From positions 2,607 to 66,606 of the forward strand of contig JADQBM010000013.1 in assembly GCA_016278615.1 (NCBI GenBank): a DNA stretch of 64,000 nucleotides. Direction: 5' to 3'. How positions within the stretch are numbered: the stretch's first letter is position 1; each line of letters opens with the position of its first letter. Under the pieces are notes generated by a model that saw only the letters and a program-made list of their open reading frames with translations, was not told the origin of the DNA and searched no databases. Positions 2,725 through 9,991 of the stretch are shown here, in pieces. This stretch comes from Clostridia bacterium. Lineage in GTDB: Bacteria > Bacillota > Clostridia > Peptostreptococcales > JAAYPU01. Both the position numbers and the translations under genes were made by a program.

Positions 2725-2768
2725 GGTGTTCCTCCTTATAGATGATGCGTTATGGATTTATCTCATTA

Positions 2769-2817
2769 AACAGCTCTAAGACTCTCACCTCTATAGGTGG
2801 CGAAATCAAGAGCTGTT
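2769..2817 (-). other. nested stem-loop (AACAGCTCT...AGAGCTGTT enclosing CACCT-atag-AGGTG) in the adh 5' region, 3' of the membrane-protein gene
   Basis: 9-bp outer stem and 5-bp inner stem read directly. Could be a terminator for 2887..3285 or a leader structure for adh. Confidence 0.3.
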
Positions 2818-2886
2818 AAATTCGAAATTTGTTCGTCTTGCCATCAGTAAAGAATCCGAAACTCCCACTGATGTGGCTCGCTTCAT

Positions 2887-3285
2887 TTAATCTTGAATCT
2901 GGAATATATTATAAATGCACAACATGAGAATTAATATATGTGGAATAGAATATCCCCAATGTGCAATAAAATCACTGGGGGGAGTTCCATCTGATATGCC
3001 ATACCCATGAAATTCAAACCATAAGACTATTGGAAGTATCTGGATGACCATAATTAAAAGAATTAAGAATATCTTTACCATTTTAATAAGTCTGCTATCT
3101 TTTATCTGCCCAATCCCTATCAAAAGAACACCTAATAAAATAGATAACAAACCCCAGTATCCCACTTCAACTTCAGTTGGTCCATACATTCCTAAGATGT
3201 ACGTTAAGCCTATTAAAATATTACCAATCCCAATAATAATTGTGATAATCTTCAATCCTTTCTCTATGCCTCTTAATTTGTCCAT
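2887..3285 (-). CDS. small integral membrane protein (about 4 TM segments), unknown function
   Basis: 132 aa, dominated by hydrophobic helices (IITIIIGIGNILIGLTYILG, LLSILLGVLLIGIG, IFLILLIMVIQILPIVLWF, IPHILILMLCIYNIF). Sits upstream of the CPBP protease gene on the same strand. Confidence 0.6.
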   Translation of the reverse strand: MDKLRGIEKGLKIITIIIGIGNILIGLTYILGMYGPTEVEVGYWGLLSILLGVLLIGIGQIKDSRLIKMVKIFLILLIMVIQILPIVLWFEFHGYGISDGTPPSDFIAHWGYSIPHILILMLCIYNIFQIQD

Positions 3286-3420
3286 TACTAAGTTCTCCTT
3301 TTAAATTGGGGATGGTTTGAAGTGACCCCAACGTCCCCCCAACGTCCCTGGATAATAAGCTTGTTCTTTAGTTTATATGTGTCAATATTGCTCTGTCCTC
3401 AAACGTCACATATGAAGTGG

Positions 3421-4170
3421 TCAACAATTAAATAATCCCCATATAACATGCCAAACTATGTCTGCCCAAAAATGAATACCAATTGCAGCTAAAAGTCCAA
3501 ATTTTCTGAAATAACAAGCAGCAAATATTGATAGCAGACTATTCAAAATAAGAATCTCAGTCATAAGAGCAATAGGAATCTCATTAATTGTATTAAAATC
3601 ATAAAAAATCATTATAGCTGGGAAGTGTCCCGCAGTAAATACAATGGCTGATAAAACAGTAATAGCGTAAAAAATCTGGTTTTGCCATTTCTTTTTCATT
3701 ATTACATAAGAAATAAGCCATATCCAAAATGAAATAAAAAACAAACGAAAAATTATCTCTTCTCCAATCCCAGCTGCTGCTGAAGCTACCAGAGAAGTAG
3801 GAAACGGTGGATGCGGAAGCGGGCTCAGTGTATGGAATTGGCTTAATATGACATCTGTAATAATAAAAATAATCCCAAGACCAATCCCAATAAATGCAGG
3901 AATAAAAAACCTTTGATTATTAGAAACTTTAGAATCCCAAATATCTGTAAATCCGAGTTTTTTTGAAAGATTTAATCCTATAAGCCCTAATCCTCCATAA
4001 AAAACAAGCATAATTGCTGCATTCACAATAGCCAGTATTGGCTTAGAAGCTGGAAGTTCTTGCATTGGTAAAAAGGCACCTTGTGGTAATAAGACATTAA
4101 TAGCTGATATAACAGAAAGAGATACAATAAGCCCTATGTAAATTTTTAATGATATGGACATCCTTTTCAT
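3421..4170 (-). CDS. CPBP family intramembrane glutamic endopeptidase (CAAX protease / Abi-like)
   Basis: 249 aa polytopic protein with the three CPBP motifs: EEIIFR (EExxxR), FTAGH (FxxxH) and HFWAD (HxxxD/N). Confidence 0.8.
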   Translation of the reverse strand: MKRMSISLKIYIGLIVSLSVISAINVLLPQGAFLPMQELPASKPILAIVNAAIMLVFYGGLGLIGLNLSKKLGFTDIWDSKVSNNQRFFIPAFIGIGLGIIFIITDVILSQFHTLSPLPHPPFPTSLVASAAAGIGEEIIFRLFFISFWIWLISYVIMKKKWQNQIFYAITVLSAIVFTAGHFPAIMIFYDFNTINEIPIALMTEILILNSLLSIFAACYFRKFGLLAAIGIHFWADIVWHVIWGLFNC

Positions 4171-4264
4171 AATCTCATTATCCCCCCTCGAAGTTCATTG
4201 GGGACATGCCAGTTTTTGCACATCCTTTCATCGGAGTCATACCAGTTTTTTTACTAACTTCTTC

Positions 4265-4390
4265 ATTTATTGTACATAAACCGGCACGTTTACACTTAAT
4301 TTTTACTGATGGAATAAATTATGCTAAGCAAATCACCTACAACTAATCCCTAATTAATCGTGCAAAATTAGGCATGTCTCCATTAGCCTT
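4265..4390. repeat. 126-bp direct repeat, copy 1 (123/126 identical to 6408..6533)
   Basis: Aligned by eye: atttattgtacaTaaaccggcacgtttacacttaatttttactgatggaataaattatgctaagcaaatcacctacaactaatccctaattaatcgtgcaaaattaggcatgtcTcCattagcctt. Confidence 0.9.
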
Positions 4391-4763
4391 TTTTTTTTTA
4401 GTTAATACTACAGGCTGTTTTCGGACAGTCTGCCGTCCCCATTTGTCACCAAAACCGATATTCAATAACTTTTCCCGCATTGTTAACCCCTCTTATATGA
4501 ATCTTGGATATACCTGATTCACTTAGTCCGAAAGATATACTTATTGGTTTATTACTTTCATTGGAAATTCTTTATCCCAAAATATTAAATGCCTTTTTAA
4601 CTTGTTAACTTTTTTCGTTCGTTTTCCAGCATCCAGTTCTTGTTTATATCATAGTTTGTCAATTTGTCAAGTCTGACCCCATTTATTCTACTTCGTATAA
4701 TTCACTTAGGATAATATGACGCCCATTGCGTTGGAAAAACTCGTCGCTTTATTTTGAAGTTAA

Positions 4764-5861
4764 TCAATCGCCACGCAAGATTGAGCGAATTATTGAATTA
4801 GCTTCCTTAATCTCAGTACTATCATATAGATTGTCAATTCTAGTTTCTATAGTGCTAAATATCGGCAAGATAATATTTGTAATTTTGTTTTCGTACTCTT
4901 TGATCGTTGTTTCCAGCATCTCAGAAAGTAGTTGATATTCATTGCTATTAAGAAAAATCATAATATAATTTCTGAAATATGATAAGCGAATCGAGTTTAC
5001 TATTTCATAATTTCCTTCATCATTTACGGTAAAGTTACACATTGACAAAATTTGAGTATGTAATAGGCACAAAAGCAATCCCTTAATTATATCCAAACTT
5101 TTGTCCACTGGCGGGTCGTCTCCCAAACGAGAAAAAATATATGAATACGCTACCGAATCACAAAAGCATTCTTCTAACATATTTCCGTTGATCCGGATTT
5201 TATCTATAGATTCTGTCAATAACGAAATATAATCTTTGTCTTTGAATTTACGGGAATACTTAGAATAGACTTCTTCCAACACTTCATTTATCTCAATAAT
5301 AGCACTGTCACGCTCTTTTTGGTATTGTTTAAGGCGAAATAGCCAATGGCCAACTTCATGAGCCAAAATATAGTCTACTTGGATATCAATCCACCTATTA
5401 TTTTCATTTGTTGCCAGCAAATCTTTGCACTGAAAGTCATCTAACGCATTTGCATTTATTGCTGTATAAAAGGCGACCAACATATCTTTTGCAAGATATG
5501 TTTCTTCAGAAAACAATTGATATGAGAATTTCCATAAATCAGGCTCTGTATTTTTCTGATAAAGAAATACGGCATTAAACATTTTTAAGTGCTGAGCCAA
5601 GTATTTGTCATATAGTAAGTAATATTTTGTTTTACTATTCTGTTTAGCTGGAATCATGAGACTATACTTCTGATAAGAGCAAGAAATAATCAAGCTAATT
5701 TCCGGGGCATTTTTAAAGATAACAGATTCTATGATTTCATCAAACTTATCATACAAAGCCTGGTTTACATATTGCTTATCCGTATCGGGCAAAACCTTAC
5801 GTTGCTGTGCAATAAACTGCATTACGAAATTATCAAGCTCGTTCAACTTCTTCTCCCTCAT
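4764..5861 (-). CDS. HExxH (zincin-like) putative metallopeptidase, family not recognised
   Basis: 365 aa. Single HEVGH motif (ILAHEVGHWLF). A downstream acidic segment, NMLEECFCDSVAYSY, is a candidate third ligand. Overlaps the upstream ORF by 29 nt. Confidence 0.55.
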   Translation of the reverse strand: MREKKLNELDNFVMQFIAQQRKVLPDTDKQYVNQALYDKFDEIIESVIFKNAPEISLIISCSYQKYSLMIPAKQNSKTKYYLLYDKYLAQHLKMFNAVFLYQKNTEPDLWKFSYQLFSEETYLAKDMLVAFYTAINANALDDFQCKDLLATNENNRWIDIQVDYILAHEVGHWLFRLKQYQKERDSAIIEINEVLEEVYSKYSRKFKDKDYISLLTESIDKIRINGNMLEECFCDSVAYSYIFSRLGDDPPVDKSLDIIKGLLLCLLHTQILSMCNFTVNDEGNYEIVNSIRLSYFRNYIMIFLNSNEYQLLSEMLETTIKEYENKITNIILPIFSTIETRIDNLYDSTEIKEANSIIRSILRGD

Positions 5862-6174
5862 TTTCTTTTGGGCGTTCTAACAATTGGTTCAATATTACGA
5901 GCGCATTGTCCTCCGTTAGGCCCTTAATTTCTACATCCCCAACCTTAATATCTACTTTCCGTCTATTCTTTATCATTTCAGATAAGACAAGTGCTACCCC
6001 GGTGGCAATAGTAGGAGTTAAGGCTATGCCTAGCTGGAGAATTTCACTGGCTCCTGAAAAGGATTTAGGTTCAATAACGCCAGTAGACATATCACTTATT
6101 TCACTAAGGCGTTCTGCATACTGTCTGTCTTCTGAGTTCATTTCGAATGTTATTAACAATTTTTTCACATCCAT
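5833..6174 (-). CDS. EACC1-like (effector-associated constant component) small protein
   Basis: 113 aa. N-terminal strand-helix LITFEMNSEDRQYAERLSEIS, Gly/Ala/Thr-rich hydrophobic hairpin GASEILQLGIALTPTIATGVALVLSEMI, basic KNRRK, and a C-terminal beta-rich VDIKVGDVEIKGLTEDNALVILNQLLE. The architecture matches my memory of EACC1 and has not been checked against an HMM. Confidence 0.45.
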   Translation of the reverse strand: MDVKKLLITFEMNSEDRQYAERLSEISDMSTGVIEPKSFSGASEILQLGIALTPTIATGVALVLSEMIKNRRKVDIKVGDVEIKGLTEDNALVILNQLLERPKENEGEEVERA

Positions 6175-6407
6175 TCATAAGCATTAATTTACCATTACAC
6201 CCCTTAGAACTAACTTCTTTCGTTTGCCACACTCATGATAATCCTTGACTCTTCTATTCTCACACGCATGGCATGTATTATTATCTATGCATCTACCATT
6301 GTTTCTGTAATAAAAAAGCAAATCCTTCTAATCTCAAGGCCGTTTATATTTTTTAAATACATAAATATTGATAATACATCGTGCCAATCGAAACGTCCCC
6401 TTGGCTT

Positions 6408-6533
6408 ATTTATTGTACAGAAACCGGCACGTTTACACTTAATTTTTACTGATGGAATAAATTATGCTAAGCAAATCACCTACAACTAATCCCTAATTAA
6501 TCGTGCAAAATTAGGCATGTCCCTATTAGCCTT
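6408..6533. repeat. 126-bp direct repeat, copy 2
   Basis: See copy 1. Lies 235 nt upstream of the EACC1-like gene. Copy 1 lies 95 nt upstream of the CPBP gene. Confidence 0.9.
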
Positions 6534-6601
6534 CCAGTGCAAAATTAGGCATGCCCCTATTAGCCTTCCATTAGCCTTCCATAGCCTTCCATAGCCTTCC
6601 A
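6503..6601. repeat. nested tandem array: 2 x 34 bp (gtgcaaaattaggcatgYccctattagccttcca), then 11 + 10 + 10 bp (t)tagccttcca units
   Basis: Read directly: 6503-6536, 6537-6570, 6571-6581, 6582-6591, 6592-6601. Confidence 0.9.
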
Positions 6602-6733
6602 TATAAATTAACCGTACCTAAACTGTGTACCGAAATGGGGTCACTTCAACGTCCCCTTGGCTTCTTTACATTCATATTTTCTCAGATTTTGCAAGTTCGC
6701 TGTTCTACGATGTGGGAAGGTCCTCAATTCAGA

Positions 6734-6753
6734 GAGTGCCACGGATGGCACTC
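6734..6753. repeat. GC-rich palindrome GAGTGCCA-cgga-TGGCACTC, 16 nt 3' of the 145-aa gene
   Basis: Perfect 8-bp stem. Shares the core GCCACGGATGGC with 7954..7973. Confidence 0.85.
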
Positions 6754-6768
6754 CCCCCAGAAGAATAT

Positions 6769-7206
6769 TTATTTTTTATCTTTTACAATCATCTTTTCAA
6801 CCGTTTCTAACCCGCCATCACGCCAACCTTTGAATGTATATACTCTTTTGGTAATACTTCTTCCTGAACCATTCATACCTAGTGAAGTACCTTCTTCCTT
6901 AAGAGTAAGACCGATTCCACCTTCTCCGCTTTTATCATAGAATTCTTCAATAATAACTTCTTCGGCAGTATCAATCCTTCGGGCAATTGATATTTCCTGA
7001 GCAACCCTTGCCTGTGCTTCTAACATTTTGAGTGATATTTCTTGTCTTAATGCTTCCTCTTTCATCTCTTCAAGGCTTCCGTTGTTTGACACCGTATTTG
7101 ATTTATTTATAATCTTCTCTGTGGTATCAACAACTATCCAAGTGAGAGGGCTAGTTAATCTTAATATCTCTCTTGAAACTCCTAATATTTGATTCATATC
7201 TGCCAT
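6769..7206 (-). CDS. hypothetical 145-aa protein with a central coiled-coil-like segment
   Basis: Strong RBS GGGGAGGATTAACT before the ATG. Central EEMKEEALRQEISLKMLEAQARVAQEISIARRI, Gly-rich C-terminal part. No family recognised. Confidence 0.65.
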   Translation of the reverse strand: MADMNQILGVSREILRLTSPLTWIVVDTTEKIINKSNTVSNNGSLEEMKEEALRQEISLKMLEAQARVAQEISIARRIDTAEEVIIEEFYDKSGEGGIGLTLKEEGTSLGMNGSGRSITKRVYTFKGWRDGGLETVEKMIVKDKK

Positions 7207-7251
7207 AGTTAATCCTCCCCAATATAATGCTTTAATTATTTCTGATTGGTT

Positions 7252-7923
7252 TCAATAATAAATTGCAAAATAAAAAACATCTTTCTCATTTCCTAAAAAA
7301 TAACAGTTTAGCTCTTGGTCTGCTTCTCCAATTAAATTAACAGGTAGTGGTTTATATGCACTGCTAAAATTATAGACTAAGTCGGTGGTATATGTAGGAA
7401 CTGTCATCTTTCTTAAGAATGGAAAGTAACAAAGTTTCCGTTCACTCGCTAATGGTTTGCTTCCGCTACCTTCACCTAATTGAATCAATTGTGGAAATCG
7501 TTCAACACAGTTAAACCACCCGATAATGAAAGCTCTTTTACCTTTTTTTCCCTCACCTATTTCTTGCAATAACCAATCAAAATCTTCTTGATATACAATC
7601 CAGTTCTTGCTCGCAGAGCTTGTTCCAGATGCACTTCTCCAATTTTTAAGGTATTTGACTTCTATCTTAAAATCTTTTGATTCTATATCAATATCATGGT
7701 TAACTTTGCTTTTTGTTCTATTGCCACTATCTCCAACCGTATAATGAGCCATCTGCTTAAATGGATAGCCGACACGAACACATATATCCATTTCGTTAAA
7801 TTTCTCATCTGCAATTTTCTTCAGCTGATTCCTTTCCAAATCACGATATTGCTCATTAAATTCATCAATAATAAAAAGGCAAGTGGATAATAGGTATTGA
7901 TCAATCGTTGGATTTAATCCCAT
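7252..7923 (-). CDS. PD-(D/E)xK (restriction-endonuclease-fold)-like protein
   Basis: 223 aa counted from MGLNPTIDQY. Candidate catalytic strand pair HDIDIESKDFKIEVKYLK (D...E-x-K). RBS GGAGTGGG 8 nt upstream of ATG 7923. The longer track ORF (to 8028) would read through the 7954..7973 palindrome and lacks an RBS. Confidence 0.5.
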   Translation of the reverse strand: MGLNPTIDQYLLSTCLFIIDEFNEQYRDLERNQLKKIADEKFNEMDICVRVGYPFKQMAHYTVGDSGNRTKSKVNHDIDIESKDFKIEVKYLKNWRSASGTSSASKNWIVYQEDFDWLLQEIGEGKKGKRAFIIGWFNCVERFPQLIQLGEGSGSKPLASERKLCYFPFLRKMTVPTYTTDLVYNFSSAYKPLPVNLIGEADQELNCYFLGNEKDVFYFAIYY

Positions 7924-7953
7924 GAAAATCCCACTCCATTCTTTTATATAATT

Positions 7954-7973
7954 GTGCGCCACGGATGGCGCAC
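7954..7973. repeat. GC-rich palindrome GTGCGCCA-cgga-TGGCGCAC, 31 nt 5' of the PD-(D/E)xK gene
   Basis: Perfect 8-bp stem with the same loop and core as 6734..6753. Confidence 0.85.
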
Positions 7974-8109
7974 CCCTTCCAATGTCGCAGAACGTTCTTA
8001 AATTGCCGACGTTCACTCTGACCCACAACGCCTTTGATTGAGAGAGTGAATGTGCGAAGCGAACGGCAATATATTGTTAAGCGAAGTAATTACGGAAACT
8101 GAAATAACA

Positions 8110-8457
8110 TCAGATAGTTATCCTATACCATGGTGGTCTACCATCTGCTTGAACAGTCCTCAAATAGTCTAGTACTGCATTATCATTCTCAATTGCACAC
8201 TTCTTAATCTCCCTAATAAAGTAATCAAGTTGACCAATTATTATATATCTTGCCTTACTCCCGTGATGTGCAATTTCTCCGCGTACTTTTACAAATTTTT
8301 CTATTTCATCGTCCTCAATACTCCATGCACTAGAAATCTTTCTTATTCCCAAATATCTCTTATAGCACTTATTAAGATTGTCAACCTTTGGTGTGTTAAA
8401 TTGCCTCATAGTCCCTTTGCAAATATCGGTATATATTTCTTTCCAACCTTTATTCAC
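8110..8457 (-). CDS. HEPN-like domain protein (Rx4H motif); possibly the 3' half of a frameshifted gene
   Basis: 115 aa with a GTG start and no convincing RBS. Helical protein with VRGEIAHHG (R-x4-H), as in RiboL-PSP-type HEPN RNases. Its reading frame is already open from 8499, overlapping the end of the upstream ORF. Confidence 0.5.
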   Translation of the reverse strand: MNKGWKEIYTDICKGTMRQFNTPKVDNLNKCYKRYLGIRKISSAWSIEDDEIEKFVKVRGEIAHHGSKARYIIIGQLDYFIREIKKCAIENDNAVLDYLRTVQADGRPPWYRITI

Positions 8458-8491
8458 AGCTTTAATTATGCTTTCTTCTTTGTTCAGGTCT

Positions 8492-8986
8492 TTATAGTTT
8501 CATCTCCATAAAAGGGATATATCTCTTGTAACATGTATCAATAAATTTTAAATACTTATCCTTTTTGAGAATCTCTTCCAAAGTATAAGTATCAAATTTG
8601 GTAAACAGATTTTCAATGTTAAATTCCTCAAACTCAAGATTGACTTCAACAAATCGGTCTAAATCATTGATTTGATTAGTATCTTGTATCCGTTTGTGAG
8701 ATGGTTCAGCCCGGCTGGTCTCCAAAGGTAACTTTAATGGATCTATTGCTCCCCCTATTTTCGAGCTAGACTTTTTATGTCCACCGCAACCATTACAGAA
8801 TGTTTTATCGCGTTCAATTAACCCTTGAGAATTAAGCTTAGTACACACCTGAAAAACTGTTTGCCTAGGGATAATATCACAGTTTTTGGATAAGCAGTCG
8901 TCACAATACCAACCCCCATGCGTTTGGAGATAATCTAGGATAGTATCTCTGTGTGTCAAAACTATGTCCCCTCTTTCCACTGTCAT
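8492..8986 (-). CDS. winged-helix-like plus CxxC...CxxC (Zn-ribbon-like) N-terminal domain protein; possibly the 5' half of a frameshifted wHTH-HEPN gene
   Basis: 164 aa. DTILDYLQTHGGWYCDDCL...QVCTKLNSQGLIERDKTFCNGCGG, followed by a helical C-terminal region. Confidence 0.45.
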   Translation of the reverse strand: MTVERGDIVLTHRDTILDYLQTHGGWYCDDCLSKNCDIIPRQTVFQVCTKLNSQGLIERDKTFCNGCGGHKKSSSKIGGAIDPLKLPLETSRAEPSHKRIQDTNQINDLDRFVEVNLEFEEFNIENLFTKFDTYTLEEILKKDKYLKFIDTCYKRYIPFMEMKL

Positions 8987-9062
8987 CTATGATCAAAGCA
9001 CCCAGTCAAACTTGAAACTTATACCTTTAAATCATGGCATGTATAAGTACGGTTTCATATAA

Positions 9063-9090
9063 CTTATATATTCACGACCTATGCCGTCAA
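9063..9090 (-). promoter_or_regulatory. candidate sigma-A promoter for the wHTH gene (TTGACG - 16 nt - TATAAG)
   Basis: Minus-strand reading of 9090..9063. About 75 nt upstream of ATG 8986. Confidence 0.35.
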
Positions 9091-9109
9091 TACTTCTTAA
9101 TTAGAGATG

Positions 9110-9128
9110 TTGCGACGTATGTCGGCAA
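9110..9128. promoter_or_regulatory. imperfect palindrome TTGCGAC-gtat-GTCGgCAA just upstream of the candidate -35 (possible operator)
   Basis: Read directly. One bulged G. Confidence 0.25.
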
Positions 9129-9466
9129 TATCTTTATAATGAATCATCTTCCATTATAAACATAACCGCCATAACCCAACTCACCCAAAAACAAAAACCA
9201 ACCTAACAACTTCCAAAGTCAGACTGGTTCCATTTCACTCTTCATAATTTTATTCCCCTCGTATCATTAATCTTTATCCCTAACTACATTGTACCCCATA
9301 ATTTCCCAAAATTCAAATATTATGTCTGAATCTGTCAATCGCATCAAAAAACAAAACCACCCCAACAACATCATTGTCAAACCGTTCTTATAAGCAGGTG
9401 GACCCGGGCCTTTTCTACACTAAAGGAGATTTTGCCTTAAGTATAGCAAAATCCACCTCTGCCTCG

Positions 9467-9519
9467 GAGATGAAATATGTATTTTTGTAATGACTTTGAG
9501 AATTCGACTCAAAAATTGG
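9467..9519. repeat. left arm of an imperfect inverted repeat of about 50 bp
   Basis: gagatgaaatatgtatttttgtaatgactttgagaattcgactcaaaaattgg, compared with the reverse complement of 9940..9990, gaagataaaatatgtattttctacattccattcggattcgaaaaaaattgg. Confidence 0.75.
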
Positions 9520-9891
9520 CAGTCACGAAGACGAAATTAGAAATTTCTTTCTTATTGCATGAGACCTGCGACGTAATCAGAGATTACTGCTAGGGCTTCA
9601 AGATAGAAGATGACTTGGAAAACCGTATATCCAACAGGACGTTGGCTTTATCTAAAAAAAATTGGCAGTCACGAAGACGAAATTAGAAATTTCTTTCGTG
9701 TTGCATGAGACCTGCGACGTAATCAGAGATTACTGCTAGGGCTTCAAGATAGAAGATGACATTAAAAATCGTATAGCCAACAGGACGTTGGCTTTATCTA
9801 AAACAATTGGCAGTCTCGAAGACGAAATTGAAATTTCTATCTCGTTGCATGAGACCTGCGACGTAATCAGAGATTACTGCTAGGGCTTCAA
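9515..9891. repeat. three tandem copies (146, 145 and a partial 86 bp) of a hairpin-rich non-coding unit
   Basis: Units start at 9515, 9661 and 9806 (attggcagtcWcgaagacgaaatt...). Each has GAAATT-aga-AATTTC and GTAATC-aga-GATTAC hairpins. The two full units also have GCCAAC-aggac-GTTGGC. No ORF of 60 aa or more in any frame between 8987 and 9991. Confidence 0.9.
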
Positions 9892-9939
9892 CGCATGGAC
9901 GCCGAATGTGAGCGTTAGGTTTTTAATGACAGATTTTTT

Positions 9940-9990
9940 CCAATTTTTTTCGAATCCGAATGGAATGTAGAAAATACATATTTTATCTTC
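9940..9990. repeat. right arm of the inverted repeat; abuts the rnz stop codon (9992)
   Basis: See the left arm. Confidence 0.75.
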
Positions 9991-9991
9991 T

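Follow-up and report, generated by a model that had tools for sequence, protein, structure and literature searches.

The locus analysed here resembles integrons, which are reported to be nearly absent from the Firmicutes; IntegronFinder 2.0 found a few integrase-less clusters in this phylum (PMC9024848). We analysed 64,000 nucleotides of a Clostridia genome (hereafter the window), in which a sequence-only reading had described an island of four two-gene modules between adh and rnz, resembling a conflict or defence island, with nothing to explain its assembly. That observation was partly confirmed. The adh–rnz interval is an accessory insertion, and we interpret it as probably being a decayed array of integron-like mobile gene cassettes. 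The hairpin of the intact arrays resembles integron attC sites in polarity, size, AAC...GTT base and better pairing of the bottom strand. In contrast to integron cassettes, shared array cassettes lose homology on either side of the hairpin core. A search of 69 array loci gave neither an integron integrase nor another recurrent recombinase.

Results

Borders and composition of the adh–rnz interval

The interval sits within a housekeeping region (nusA, infB, truB, ribF, pnp and polC), and its genes are rare or of patchy distribution. The eight minus-strand ORFs, here called A to H, were recovered at the coordinates first given for them, apart from revised starts for F and H (Table 1). Coding density was 62% in the island and 86% in the remaining window, where the median intergenic gap was 102 nt. 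The long ORF-poor spacers that had been described are real: positions 4171–4763, 6175–6768, 7921–8109 (the third spacer as revised) and 8987–9991 contain no ORF of at least 50 aa on the coding strand, and the repeats reported in them exceed chance expectation by far. Plus-strand ORFs of 61–101 aa overlapping 6235–6940 appear spurious.

The common orientation of the island ORFs is true but not distinctive: all except one of the non-nested ORFs of at least 120 aa in the window lie on the minus strand, and because nearly the entire 64-kb window is minus-strand, this layout does not set the island apart. Similarly, the GC content of the island (0.354) is so close to that of the rest of the window (0.356) that there is no compositional anomaly relative to the flanks. 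The window contains no tRNA, as had been stated, and a regex scan and Pfam overview gave no integron integrase or other recurrent recombinase among the matches listed. The identity of rnz to the nearest species-level genome was 64%.

Table 1. Coordinates of ORFs, hairpin remnants and repeats in the window.
Feature	Start	End	Strand	Remarks
A	2887	3285	-	ORF
B	3421	4170	-	ORF
C	4764	5861	-	ORF
D	5833	6174	-	ORF; 29-nt overlap with C
E	6769	7206	-	ORF
F	7252	7920	-	ORF; listed end 8028, start revised to ATG at 7920
G	8110	8457	-	ORF
H	8492	8959	-	ORF; listed end 8986, likely start TTG at 8959
Element remnant 1	6635	6764	-	Onset 5 nt past the E stop codon
Element remnant 2	7954	8090	-	Between G and F; structurally intact variant
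Element remnant 3	9056	9140	-	Upstream of H
Hairpin-end fragments	3322	3349	-	GGGGACGTTGGGG and GGGACGTTGGGG in tandem, between B and A
Hairpin 3′ end, second copy	6392	6412	-	AAGCCAAGGGGACGTT; direct repeat, 95%
57-nt hairpin	2765	2821	-	Between A and adh; near-perfect, ATTTAACAGCTCT..31 nt..AGAGCTGTTTAAT
130-nt direct repeat, copy 1	4261	4390		91 nt upstream of B
130-nt direct repeat, copy 2, and tandem repeats	6405	6603		Repeat at 6405–6533, then tandems
146-nt tandem repeat	9511	9891		2.6 copies, just downstream of rnz

A hairpin element in intact arrays

Elsewhere, genes H and F each form single-gene cassettes within dense arrays whose units are co-oriented. An element profile search identified 10 copies of a hairpin element in 9.6 kb of the Dehalobacter locus L091 and 8 copies in locus L086 of an unclassified MAG, all on the gene strand and one per intergenic gap; unrelated rnz loci totalling 1.1 Mb contained none. 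A 22-mer from the hairpin loop matched 60 metagenome contigs, and a covariance model applied to 60 metagenome loci returned 174 copies in dense same-strand arrays. The array units had a median length of 858 nt (112 distinct units) and mostly held one gene, the longest ORF being co-oriented with the element in 87% of them.

The element is a two-helix hairpin of about 94 nt at each unit junction, each unit ending in one, and it begins from a few to about 20 nt past the upstream stop codon. Its outer helix ends in an invariant ...ATAAC / GTTAT..., its internal loop is asymmetric (2 nt versus 5 nt), its inner helix of 13 bp shows covariation, and its 32-nt loop, the sequence of which is conserved across genera, contains a conserved ATGAATGTAG. 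In 18 copies, 84.7% of cells were paired, compared to 23–40% with the partners slid, and 14 of 22 pairs showed double changes; the covariation score was 0.383 versus 0.151 in shuffles, a value reached by 0 of 500 shuffles. On the sense strand of 146 distinct copies there were 215 A.C mismatches versus 86 G.T, which indicates that the element pairs better on the bottom strand; at one helix position, 79 copies have A.C and 56 have G.C (read from the bottom strand, G.T and G.C, respectively). The element has no T-tract, Rfam 15 gave no match for the window, L091 or L086, and no published description of this hairpin family was found.

Single or paired elements also occur between ordinary genes (L104, L151 and L152). 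Hairpin cores are 67.1% alike within an array versus 66.6% between arrays. Group II introns and IS91-type elements are inserted within the arrays, and the only tyrosine recombinases seen in array loci were Xer-like ORFs attached to IS91 transposases, which were rejected as integron integrases at 190 bits, under the cut-off of 265.

Remnants of the element in the window

Compared with these arrays, the window holds three decayed hairpin copies at unit boundaries; they are degenerate, and remnants 1 and 2 score poorly with the covariance model (16.8–24.9 bits). Remnant 1 (nhmmer E 1.9e-31) shares 70–78% identity with elements of more than 40 array loci across about 89 nt. Its 5′ base reads GTAGAAC and its 3′ base GTTGAAG; it also has a 5′ hairpin (GAGTGCCATCCGTGGCACTC) and retains the conserved loop ..TCTGAGA..ATGAATGTA. 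Deletion of the 3′ strand of its inner helix accounts for a covariance-model score of only 16.9 bits. Remnant 2 retains both helices, with the 5′ base GCTTAAC, the inner helix ATATATTGCCG/CGGCAATTTAA, a 55-nt loop and the 3′ base GTTCTGC, followed by a hairpin (TGCGCCATCCGTGGCGCA); it scored 24.9 bits (E 0.009), or 16.8 bits with filters off. In remnant 3, the inner helix (GATATTGCCG..CGGCATAGG) is decayed and of the remnant 2 subtype, and the 3′ base AAGTTATATG is intact; the covariance model matches weakly at 9048–9110 (10.8 bits). These boundary remnants link the island to cassette arrays and so overturn the earlier statement that nothing explains its assembly. A second contig, whose depth matches that of the genome in two samples (18.6 versus 15.3, and 67.7 versus 66.8), bears an intact element.

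No recognisable hairpin of the array family adjoins D–C, B or A, and the covariance model detected none on the short contigs that carry relatives of C and D. The fragments between B and A resemble the 3′ end of a cassette hairpin (spacer plus GTT) and belong to a repeat family shared with 6640–6656. The copies of AAGCCAAGGGGACGTT at 6392–6412 and 6648–6668 bracket a 256-nt segment without an ORF.

Homology breakpoints at the hairpin base

The H unit of the window is homologous to L086 exactly from AAGTTATATG onwards, which in L086 is the 3′ base of the hairpin at 4223–4316, and homology between the F unit and the Dehalobacter array begins at GAACGTT inside remnant 2; for both units, the GTT of the hairpin upstream marks where homology to foreign arrays sets in. 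In shared-cassette pairs, homology runs from the upstream GTT to the AAC of the downstream hairpin (four base-by-base alignments of six compared). Because homology breaks on both sides of the core, the hairpin core is inherited with neither neighbour. No present-day excision or empty site was detected in the assembled contigs of four metagenome runs, which lose rare variants.

Genes of the H and F units

Gene H encodes a wHTH and Cys-rich N-terminal module of about 155 aa counted from the TTG at 8959, the likely start given its homologues and ribosome-binding site. It matches the phrog_2440 transcriptional regulator (E 1.8e-5), in support of the wHTH label that it had received. Six relatives were found. 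H corresponds to the N-terminal 164 residues of relatives of 284–305 aa, ending exactly at ...FMEMKL; P0006–P0010 are 55–76% identical across this part and continue, precisely where H ends, into a nuclease-like tail with a GIY..YIG-like domain. The P0006 gene is a cassette flanked by two hairpins in L086. Gene G, a 115-aa ORF for which no close homologues were retrieved, stands where the H relatives have another C-terminal domain. Its proposed HEPN identity is favoured by an R-x4-H motif (RGEIAH) and a partial match to HEPN_RiboL-PSP (PF18735, profile positions 106–184 of 191), but the score was below the Pfam cut-off (25.9 versus 28.4 bits); an artificial H-to-G read-through widened the match to positions 46–184, with a score no higher. 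Judging by these alignments, H and G are one predicted architecture with an exchanged effector part.

Gene F (223 aa) is widespread in Firmicutes, with more than 287 homologues that are 60–81% identical and lie in unrelated contexts; all are of 221–225 aa, which places the start of F at the ATG at 7920. It forms a single-gene cassette within the Dehalobacter array and was found without the element in L087, L092, L154 and L156. Residues E44, D46, D77, E88 and K90 are invariant. The structure was predicted confidently (pLDDT 86.5, pTM 0.86), with D77 directly preceding a strand and E88-x-K90 inside the next one. Foldseek gave no significant match for this model, and the weak matches were mostly PD-(D/E)xK nucleases. 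The assignment of F to these nucleases draws on the conserved motif and on weak indications from the fold, and F is a candidate PD-(D/E)xK nuclease. Gene E, located between F and the hairpin expected for F, is an orphan ORF of 145 aa preceded by a strong ribosome-binding site. It matched no family in Pfam, NCBIfam, PADLOC or phage-profile searches and is absent downstream of F homologues in L087–L093, so that the proposed F+E module is not conserved elsewhere.

Genes A, B and the D–C pair

Every C homologue (L081–L084) has a D homologue, 57–74% identical, immediately upstream, and D–C is, on this gene order, a predicted conserved two-gene operon. C (365 aa) has only three homologues among 5.8 billion proteins, 44–59% identical over the full length. 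The HExxH motif noted earlier (AHEVGHW) is, like EECFCD, invariant across the four members of the family. Profile and PDB searches gave no match, and the AlphaFold model was unusable (pLDDT 36.8); C is a candidate zinc metallopeptidase, and its family is very rare. D (113 aa) has a hydrophobic segment in its centre and a conserved C-terminal motif, KN.R.VDI.VG...KGLTE.NAL..L.QLL, and 65 relatives were found among 1.8 billion cluster representatives. Neither D nor 56 relatives matched any Pfam family, EACC1 included, contrary to the label first given to D.

The CPBP label of B (249 aa) was correct, as the protein belongs to the CPBP/Rce1-like intramembrane protease family (PF02517, E 3.6e-8, 34 bits, cut-off 22.4). 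A (132 aa) has by eye the appearance of a multi-pass membrane protein. It matched nothing in Pfam, NCBIfam or PADLOC and has one relative, 46% identical, in metagenome locus L107, outside the array of that locus.

Other repeats in the interval

The 57-nt hairpin (12 of 13 positions paired, AAC/GTT at the base) is single-copy in the window and is dispersed in many copies across the source metagenome, with a depth of 515–1441 versus about 18 in the flanks; contigs break there. The two copies of the 130-nt repeat are 97% identical, have no stable fold (z 0.2–0.4) and have no further copy in the window or the array loci. The tandems within 6503–6603 are a 34-nt repeat (two copies) and a 10-nt repeat (four copies). 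The 146-nt repeat (Tandem Repeats Finder score 669, 94% matches) contains three hairpins per unit and has no Rfam match; one unit folds with z of -2.5 to -3.0 and the other more weakly. Its depth is about six times that of the flanks, with many loose ends, and the metagenome holds more variant copies.

Discussion

The mechanism that we propose for a decayed cassette array is that a putative site-specific recombinase would cut at the base of the folded hairpin, so that units could be excised, inserted and reshuffled by recombination. At least two units of the window, H(+G) and F(+E), probably came as cassettes, leaving three worn hairpins at their borders. The remainder (D–C, B, A, the 130-nt repeats and the hairpin-end fragments) would be older decayed units or separate insertions.

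The hairpins might instead be a lineage-specific type of attC served by a canonical IntI elsewhere in the genome or on a mobile element, in keeping with the integrase-less clusters of this sort in Firmicutes (PMC9024848). The AAC...GTT base, the polarity relative to the ORFs, the length, the better bottom-strand folding and the compact, co-oriented cassettes of integron-like size would all fit. Integrons are also known to carry inserted group II introns and IS91-type elements, as these arrays do. Nevertheless, we regard a canonical IntI as unlikely, since no IntI was found in the loci examined, the downstream hairpin core is not kept by shared cassettes, the loop sequence is conserved across genera, and the asymmetric internal loop is unlike the attC layout.

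The hairpin could also have no role in moving genes, being a terminator or a repeat of the REP or MITE type that is scattered through the intergenic DNA of some Firmicutes; the interval would then be a common accessory or defence island that arose through unrelated transfers. The elements between ordinary genes, the equal likeness of cores within and between arrays, the movement of F without the element in several genomes and the other, unrelated repeats of the window, such as the high-copy hairpin, agree with this. However, every base-by-base alignment of shared units shows a sharp loss of homology at the hairpin base, the arrays have a strict common orientation and one unit per hairpin, and neither the bottom-strand pairing bias nor the missing T-tract would be expected, which makes such an origin improbable. 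A structured RNA, for example a 3′-UTR or processing signal, or a leader of the next gene, with the long spacers encoding regulatory RNAs, seems very improbable to us: strong covariation, the conserved loop, the onset close behind the upstream stop codon and the folding of one 146-nt unit better than shuffles are offset by A.C mismatches 2.5 times as frequent as G.T on the sense strand, by the lack of an Rfam family and by the finding that the element is inherited with neither of the genes beside it.

The island looks like a collection of conflict or defence genes, and its cargo may function in defence. It would comprise a wHTH sensor module with an exchanged nuclease tail (a HEPN-like ORF in the window, a GIY-YIG-like tail in its relatives), the PD-(D/E)xK-like F, the pair of a small membrane-anchored and an HExxH protein, and a CPBP protease. 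What stands of the earlier defence reading is the accessory nature and rarity of the genes and their defence-type or mobile neighbours: the neighbourhoods of H and F relatives contain OLD-family ATPase/TOPRIM, DUF4160/DUF2442, MazE, AAA_21+DUF4435, SLFN_AlbA_2 and RhuM genes as well as transposases and a prophage. Against it, no ORF matched any PADLOC model, and the four modules are not equivalents, D+C being conserved, F+E not, and H+G an effector-swapped architecture.

Whatever the function of its cargo, the hairpin family forms dense arrays in Dehalobacter and on many metagenome contigs, in a phylum from which integrons are reported to be nearly absent.

Repeated Hairpin Element and Its Arrays

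The approximately 7-kb island between adh and rnz contains eight ORFs (A nearest adh, H nearest rnz), and a repeated element was found through a small ORF-like similarity downstream of the homologue of ORF F in Dehalobacter. The Dehalobacter assembly is GCA_004343605.1 (contig POSF01000014). In its locus of 9.6 kb, a profile of the element recognized 10 copies, and a MAG locus with a relative of ORF H contained 8. All of these copies lie on the gene strand, one in each intergenic gap, whereas 1.1 Mb of unrelated loci had none. Therefore, the F homologue and the H relative are each a single-gene unit between two elements.

The core of the element is about 94 nt long and consists, in order, of ...ATAAC, AG, a 13-bp helix, a 32-nt loop with ATGAATGTAG, the returning helix, CGGGAC, and GTTAT.... 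The two helices showed strong covariation. In the 18 copies, 84.7% of the helix cells were paired, in comparison to 23 to 40% when slid; double changes were present at 14 of the 22 pairs, and the covariation score was reached by 0 of 500 shuffles. The AAC/GTT pair at the hairpin base was present in 137 to 143 of about 145 scored copies. The internal loop of the hairpin is asymmetric, the motif of the 32-nt loop is conserved across genera, and the island and array loci had no match in Rfam.

A 22-mer from the loop matched 60 metagenome contigs, in which a covariance model located 174 copies in dense, same-strand arrays. The median unit length was 858 nt (112 distinct units), the longest ORF was on the element strand in 87%, and the median distance from the GTT to the start codon was 80 nt. 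Among 146 distinct copies, the sense-strand mismatches were A.C in 215 cases versus G.T in 86, and one helix position showed A.C or G.C on the sense strand, equivalent to G.T or G.C on the bottom strand. On the basis of this mismatch spectrum, the bottom strand is predicted to fold better than the sense strand, which would count against a sense-strand RNA and match integron attC sites.

In two loci, a two-hairpin cluster adjoins a formylmethanofuran-tetrahydromethanopterin formyltransferase gene (listed in the table), and the element may occur outside the Firmicutes too, in methanogens or methylotrophs. No description of the arrays was found in the part of the literature searched on integrons or attC in Dehalobacter, Peptococcaceae, and Bacillota; an earlier description may exist.

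Positions of hairpin remnants, repeats, and array-associated genes (L numbers denote foreign loci)
Feature	Sequence	Position (nt)	Strand	Remarks
Remnant 1	Window	6635–6764		Starts 5 nt past the E stop codon; matches elements in >40 loci
Remnant 2	Window	7954–8090		Between G and F; both helices kept, loop longer
Remnant 3	Window	~9056–9140		Upstream of H; decayed helix, remnant 2 subtype, 3′ base intact
Hairpin 3′-end fragment (GGGGACGTT)	Window	6392–6412
Two hairpin 3′-end fragments (GGGGACGTT)	Window	3322–3349
130-nt direct repeat	Window	4261–4390, 6405–6533		97% identity
34-nt and 10-nt tandem repeats	Window	6503–6603
146-nt tandem repeat, ×2.6	Window	9511–9891		Just downstream of rnz
Near-perfect 57-nt hairpin, ATTTAACAGCTCT...AGAGCTGTTTAAT	Window	2765–2821		Between A and adh
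256-nt segment without ORF	Window	6413–6668		Copy of AAGCCAAGGGGACGTT at each side
Sigma-70 consensus, TTGACA-16 nt-TATAAT	Window	7086–7113	+	Perfect match; inside E
IS91-family Y2 transposase gene	L097	1294–3349	−	In or beside array
IS91-family Y2 transposase gene	L112	1876–3371	+	In or beside array
IS91-family Y2 transposase gene	L142	115–705	+	In or beside array
Group II intron RT/maturase gene	L128	11667–12446	Cassette strand	Beside hairpin
Group II intron RT/maturase genes	L138	7574–8428, 9741–10838	Cassette strand	Beside hairpins
Group II intron RT/maturase gene	L142	2814–4148	Cassette strand	Beside hairpin
Two-hairpin cluster	L094	4961–5881		Adjoins formyltransferase gene
Two-hairpin cluster	L095	1123–2043		Adjoins formyltransferase gene
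F homologue with AAA_21+DUF4435 gene	L156	8351–10678

Remnants of the Element in the Island

Three decayed copies of the element were located in the window, at the borders of units; in remnant 1, the inner helix lacks its 3′ strand. The homology between the F unit and Dehalobacter begins at the GAACGTT of remnant 2, and that between the H unit and the MAG array begins exactly at AAGTTATATG, the 3′ base of remnant 3. An intact element was present on a second contig, whose depth matched that of the present genome in each of two samples. No element of the hairpin family was recognizable beside D-C, B, or A, and so the case for a cassette origin covers the other units only. We consider it very probable that the island is related to the hairpin arrays, and it is a decayed relic, probably no longer active. 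The 256-nt segment without an ORF could be a non-coding unit inserted at the 3′ end of a hairpin.

Layout and Setting of the Island

All eight minus-strand ORFs described in the sequence-only reading were found. ORF F starts with the ATG at 7920 and encodes 223 aa (its 287+ relatives are all 221 to 225 aa), and ORF H most likely starts with the TTG at 8959, after the predicted ribosome-binding site GGAAAGAGGGGA, as in its relatives. The long gene-poor spacers and the direct and tandem repeats reported in that reading were confirmed, the coding density being 62% in the island versus 86% elsewhere in the window, where the median intergenic gap outside the island is 102 nt. The absence of tRNA genes was likewise borne out for the whole window. 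The one-strand layout holds for the ORFs but is not specific to the island, because the minus strand carries the non-nested ORFs of at least 120 aa throughout the window, with a single exception, and the GC content did not set the island apart from its flanks (0.354 versus 0.356 in the rest of the window, identical). The window-wide strand bias and the equal GC content therefore weaken the picture of a distinct island.

The flanking genes are those of a core chromosome (Fe-ADH, RNase Z, nusA, infB, truB, ribF, pnp, polC, and diol dehydratase). The source is a mine-drainage metagenome, and in four runs the depth of the island equaled that of the flanks and no alternative junction was seen. Identity to the rnz gene of the closest species-representative genome was only 64%, the neighbor genes of the window were shared by none of 80 rnz loci, and an exact-sequence search with rnz gave no match. 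The island DNA had no match in phage and plasmid collections.

Copies of the 130-nt repeat lie upstream of B and of D-C; neither the array loci nor other parts of the window contain a further one. This repeat may represent regulatory DNA common to both sites or the scar of a duplication; a structured RNA was rejected because folding was no better than that of shuffled sequence. The 146-nt repeat is unrelated to the array element and was without an Rfam match; each unit contains three hairpins, its metagenome depth was about 6 times that of the flanks, and variant copies occur elsewhere. Contigs break at the 57-nt hairpin between A and adh, where their depth was 30 to 80 times the genome value, and so this hairpin is a high-copy dispersed repeat in the genome or the community. 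Within E, opposite in strand to the genes, the perfect sigma-70 consensus would give a predicted transcript antisense to E and F; a scan for promoters and terminators found no excess over chance. A bacteriocin or small-peptide content of the spacers was rejected because the 20- to 45-aa ORFs look random.

A Constant wHTH Module with Different Putative Effectors

ORF H encodes a wHTH protein, as judged by a profile match. Its relatives P0006 to P0010 (284 to 305 aa) match H residue by residue to ...FMEMKL, past which they have GIY..YIG-like motifs (KGIYVFKS..IKYIGRVKG ... E..LINLVKPDWN) in a tail that had no Pfam hit and is labeled from these motifs only. The H protein of the window ends exactly at the FMEMKL junction, and the HEPN-like ORF G follows 34 nt on in another frame. 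ORF G aligned with the C-terminal half only of PF18735 (RiboL-PSP-HEPN) at 25.9 bits, below the 28.4 threshold, and carries the R-x4-H motif RGEIAH, where the HEPN criterion is R-x4-6-H. Therefore, because the junction is shared and the tails differ, the same sensor/DNA-binding module occurs with two different candidate nuclease-type effectors, and a constant module with exchanged nuclease-type effectors is typical of conflict systems.

We also considered that H and G are a frameshifted HEPN fusion, in that an artificial read-through lengthens the Pfam alignment. This reading was rejected: the score was no higher, the relatives have another domain after the junction, and the contigs show no indel there. 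The neighbors of the P0006 gene encode an OLD-family ATPase/TOPRIM protein, DUF429, DUF4160/DUF2442, MazE, and IS21 proteins.

Other Genes of the Island and the Defense Interpretation

The CPBP/Rce1-like assignment of B was supported (PF02517, 34 bits against a gathering score of 22.4, over profile positions 5 to 92 of 93), as was the HExxH motif of C, in which HEVGH is invariant and EECFCD is conserved between C and its relatives. A zincin combines its characteristic fold with HExxH and a third zinc ligand; C was without a profile match or a PDB sequence match, and only three relatives were found among 5.8 billion proteins. The D and C reading frames overlap by 29 nt, and on four independent contigs the C homologues all follow a D homologue; therefore, D-C is a genuine conserved operon.

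In contrast, the proposal that D is an EACC1-like protein failed, in that D matched no Pfam family at E ≤ 0.1, and 56 of its relatives matched none, including EACC1, at E ≤ 0.01, on the assumption that Pfam holds an EACC1 model. ORF D, which has 65 distant relatives, resembles EACC1 by eye only, in size, a central hydrophobic segment, and a C-terminal strand-like motif. One relative of D, the 1428-aa P0136, contains 11 stretches that match the D-like domain.

The grouping of F and E as a module was not sustained, because E is an orphan that is absent beside F homologues elsewhere. The F family is widespread in Firmicutes, strongly conserved, and without a Pfam domain. A PD-(D/E)xK core is alpha-beta-beta-beta-alpha-beta, with an acidic residue close to where one strand begins and (D/E)xK in the next, and the F model (pLDDT 86.5) has an invariant D77 just before a strand and an invariant E88-x-K90 within the next strand. 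A Foldseek search with F gave nothing significant (best E 0.076, TM ≤ 0.24), the weak matches being mostly PD-(D/E)xK nucleases; PDB sequence searches with F and G gave nothing, and the F protein had no match in phage and plasmid collections. Relatives of F adjoin transposases in some contexts, lie near SLFN_AlbA_2, RhuM, and a serine recombinase in others, and one is inside a C. sordellii prophage. In locus L156, an F homologue starts 48 nt after the gene of a 533-aa AAA_21+DUF4435 protein, a pair that may be a two-gene system; the accessory region around it, all on one strand, also has RhuM and another AAA_15 ATPase.

None of the eight ORFs matched PADLOC-DB 2.0 at E ≤ 0.1, and NCBIfam and PHROGs searches of the ORFs found little. 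The proposal of a conflict or defense island thus stands in part: it is favored by the OLD-family nuclease and toxin–antitoxin genes that neighbor relatives of H, but it has neither a PADLOC hit nor the EACC1 label. A defense role of the island genes is plausible but unproven, and the sequence-only observation as a whole was largely right.

Recombinases and Unit Breakpoints

A regex scan and the Pfam matches listed gave no integron integrase, either for the window or for 69 array loci. The sole tyrosine recombinases at the arrays, among the matches listed, were Xer-like partners of IS91 transposases; against TIGR02249, the Xer-like recombinase scored 190 bits (cut-off 265), in a match that was split in two and left out the IntI-specific region. 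IS91-family Y2 transposases with the Xer-like recombinase, and group II intron reverse transcriptases, were recurrent neighbors of the arrays. In L097 and L112, the Xer-like recombinase ORF precedes that of the IS91 transposase, the L112 pair lying between two hairpins, and the reverse transcriptase ORF of L142 starts about 450 nt past a hairpin.

Shared gene units were compared in six pairs of loci, of which four were aligned base by base (L096/L124, L106/L107, L111/L146, and L112/L118). In all four, homology extended from the upstream GTT to the downstream ...AAC(A/G), whereas the inner helices differed. Therefore, with breakpoints on both sides, the hairpin core was inherited with neither neighbor. 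The gene units have 9- to 10-nt inverted ends, such as GTTATATGCA...TGCATATAAC. From this small sample, we infer that the exchange would take place at both sides of the hairpin base, which predicts double breakpoints, whereas a single crossover at G|TT does not. Concerted evolution of the cores was rejected as the cause of the double breakpoints, because identity was 67.1% within arrays versus 66.6% between arrays.

Discussion

Integrons are the classic engine of gene capture and shuffling. The integron cassette is an ORF with its own downstream attC, recombined by a single crossover at G|TT, and attC is an imperfect hairpin of 57 to 141 nt, located downstream of the ORF, in which the 5′ base ends with AAC and the 3′ base starts with GTT, and of which the bottom strand is folded and recombined. 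A complete integron also has the integrase IntI, with a specific extra domain, beside its array. The hairpin arrays are similar in their short, co-oriented, mostly single-ORF cassettes (those of integrons being about 0.5 to 1 kb), the imperfect-palindrome junction (~60 to 140 nt) with an AAC 5′ base and a GTT 3′ base, the polarity of the hairpin relative to the ORFs, the predicted preference for bottom-strand folding, and the IS and group II intron insertions. They differ in that the arrays were found without IntI and in Clostridia and other Firmicutes, the upstream ORF does not carry the hairpin core along, breakpoints being on both sides of that core, the internal loop is asymmetric, and the loop motif is kept across genera. 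The spacer geometry of the hairpin also differs from the attC layout. The cargo of orphan, toxin–antitoxin, and defense-type genes is a further similarity, sedentary integrons being reported to store phage-defense systems (bioRxiv 10.1101/2024.07.02.601686). Integrons are reported to be extremely rare in Firmicutes, for which IntegronFinder 2.0 reported one complete integron overall and a few CALINs (PMC9024848). Arrays without an integrase fit a CALIN and not a complete integron.

The pdif modules of Acinetobacter plasmids are small gene modules reshuffled between replicons, with short sites at both ends that are 28 bp long and double-stranded with a 6-nt spacer. By analogy with such Xer-dependent dif modules, the double breakpoints would fit two inverted sites per hairpin, and the outer arm GTTATATGAAAT of the hairpin may be loosely like a XerD arm; to our knowledge, pdif sites form no 94-nt hairpin with a covarying inner helix. 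In modular defense proteins, HEPN, GIY-YIG, or PD-(D/E)xK domains are combined with sensor/DNA-binding modules, and H is alike in its constant wHTH and linker with a C-terminal nuclease-like part that changes. It is unlike these proteins in that the effector G of the window is a separate ORF in another frame with a sub-threshold HEPN match, the GIY-YIG of the H relatives is drawn from motifs only, and there was no PADLOC model match.

The missing assembly mechanism of the island is most likely cassette recombination at the attC-like hairpin, and we hold the whole explanation, with site-specific recombination as the mechanism, to be reasonably probable. In a speculative and rather doubtful extension, anaerobic Firmicutes would shuffle cassettes in these arrays independently of the integron integrase, and the island would be a fossil outpost with compact nuclease-type conflict genes. 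In this reading, a folded DNA hairpin would be cut at both sides of its base, either because both strands are recombinogenic or because each hairpin has two inverted sites as in dif modules, and gene units and hairpin cores would then reassort independently of each other.

The main interest is the element family revealed, rather than the island: a conserved attC-like hairpin whose dense cassette arrays occur in Dehalobacter and on many metagenome contigs and whose relics lie in a Clostridia chromosome. Cassette arrays offer a concrete origin for small islands of orphan genes without an integrase, transposase, or tRNA, and they bring candidate compact defense genes, namely, H-type wHTH-nuclease proteins, whose effectors are swappable, along with the F family and the paired genes D and C. 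If the arrays are real cassette systems, then integron-like capture would be more widespread than surveys say, or there would be a parallel system with other rules of exchange.
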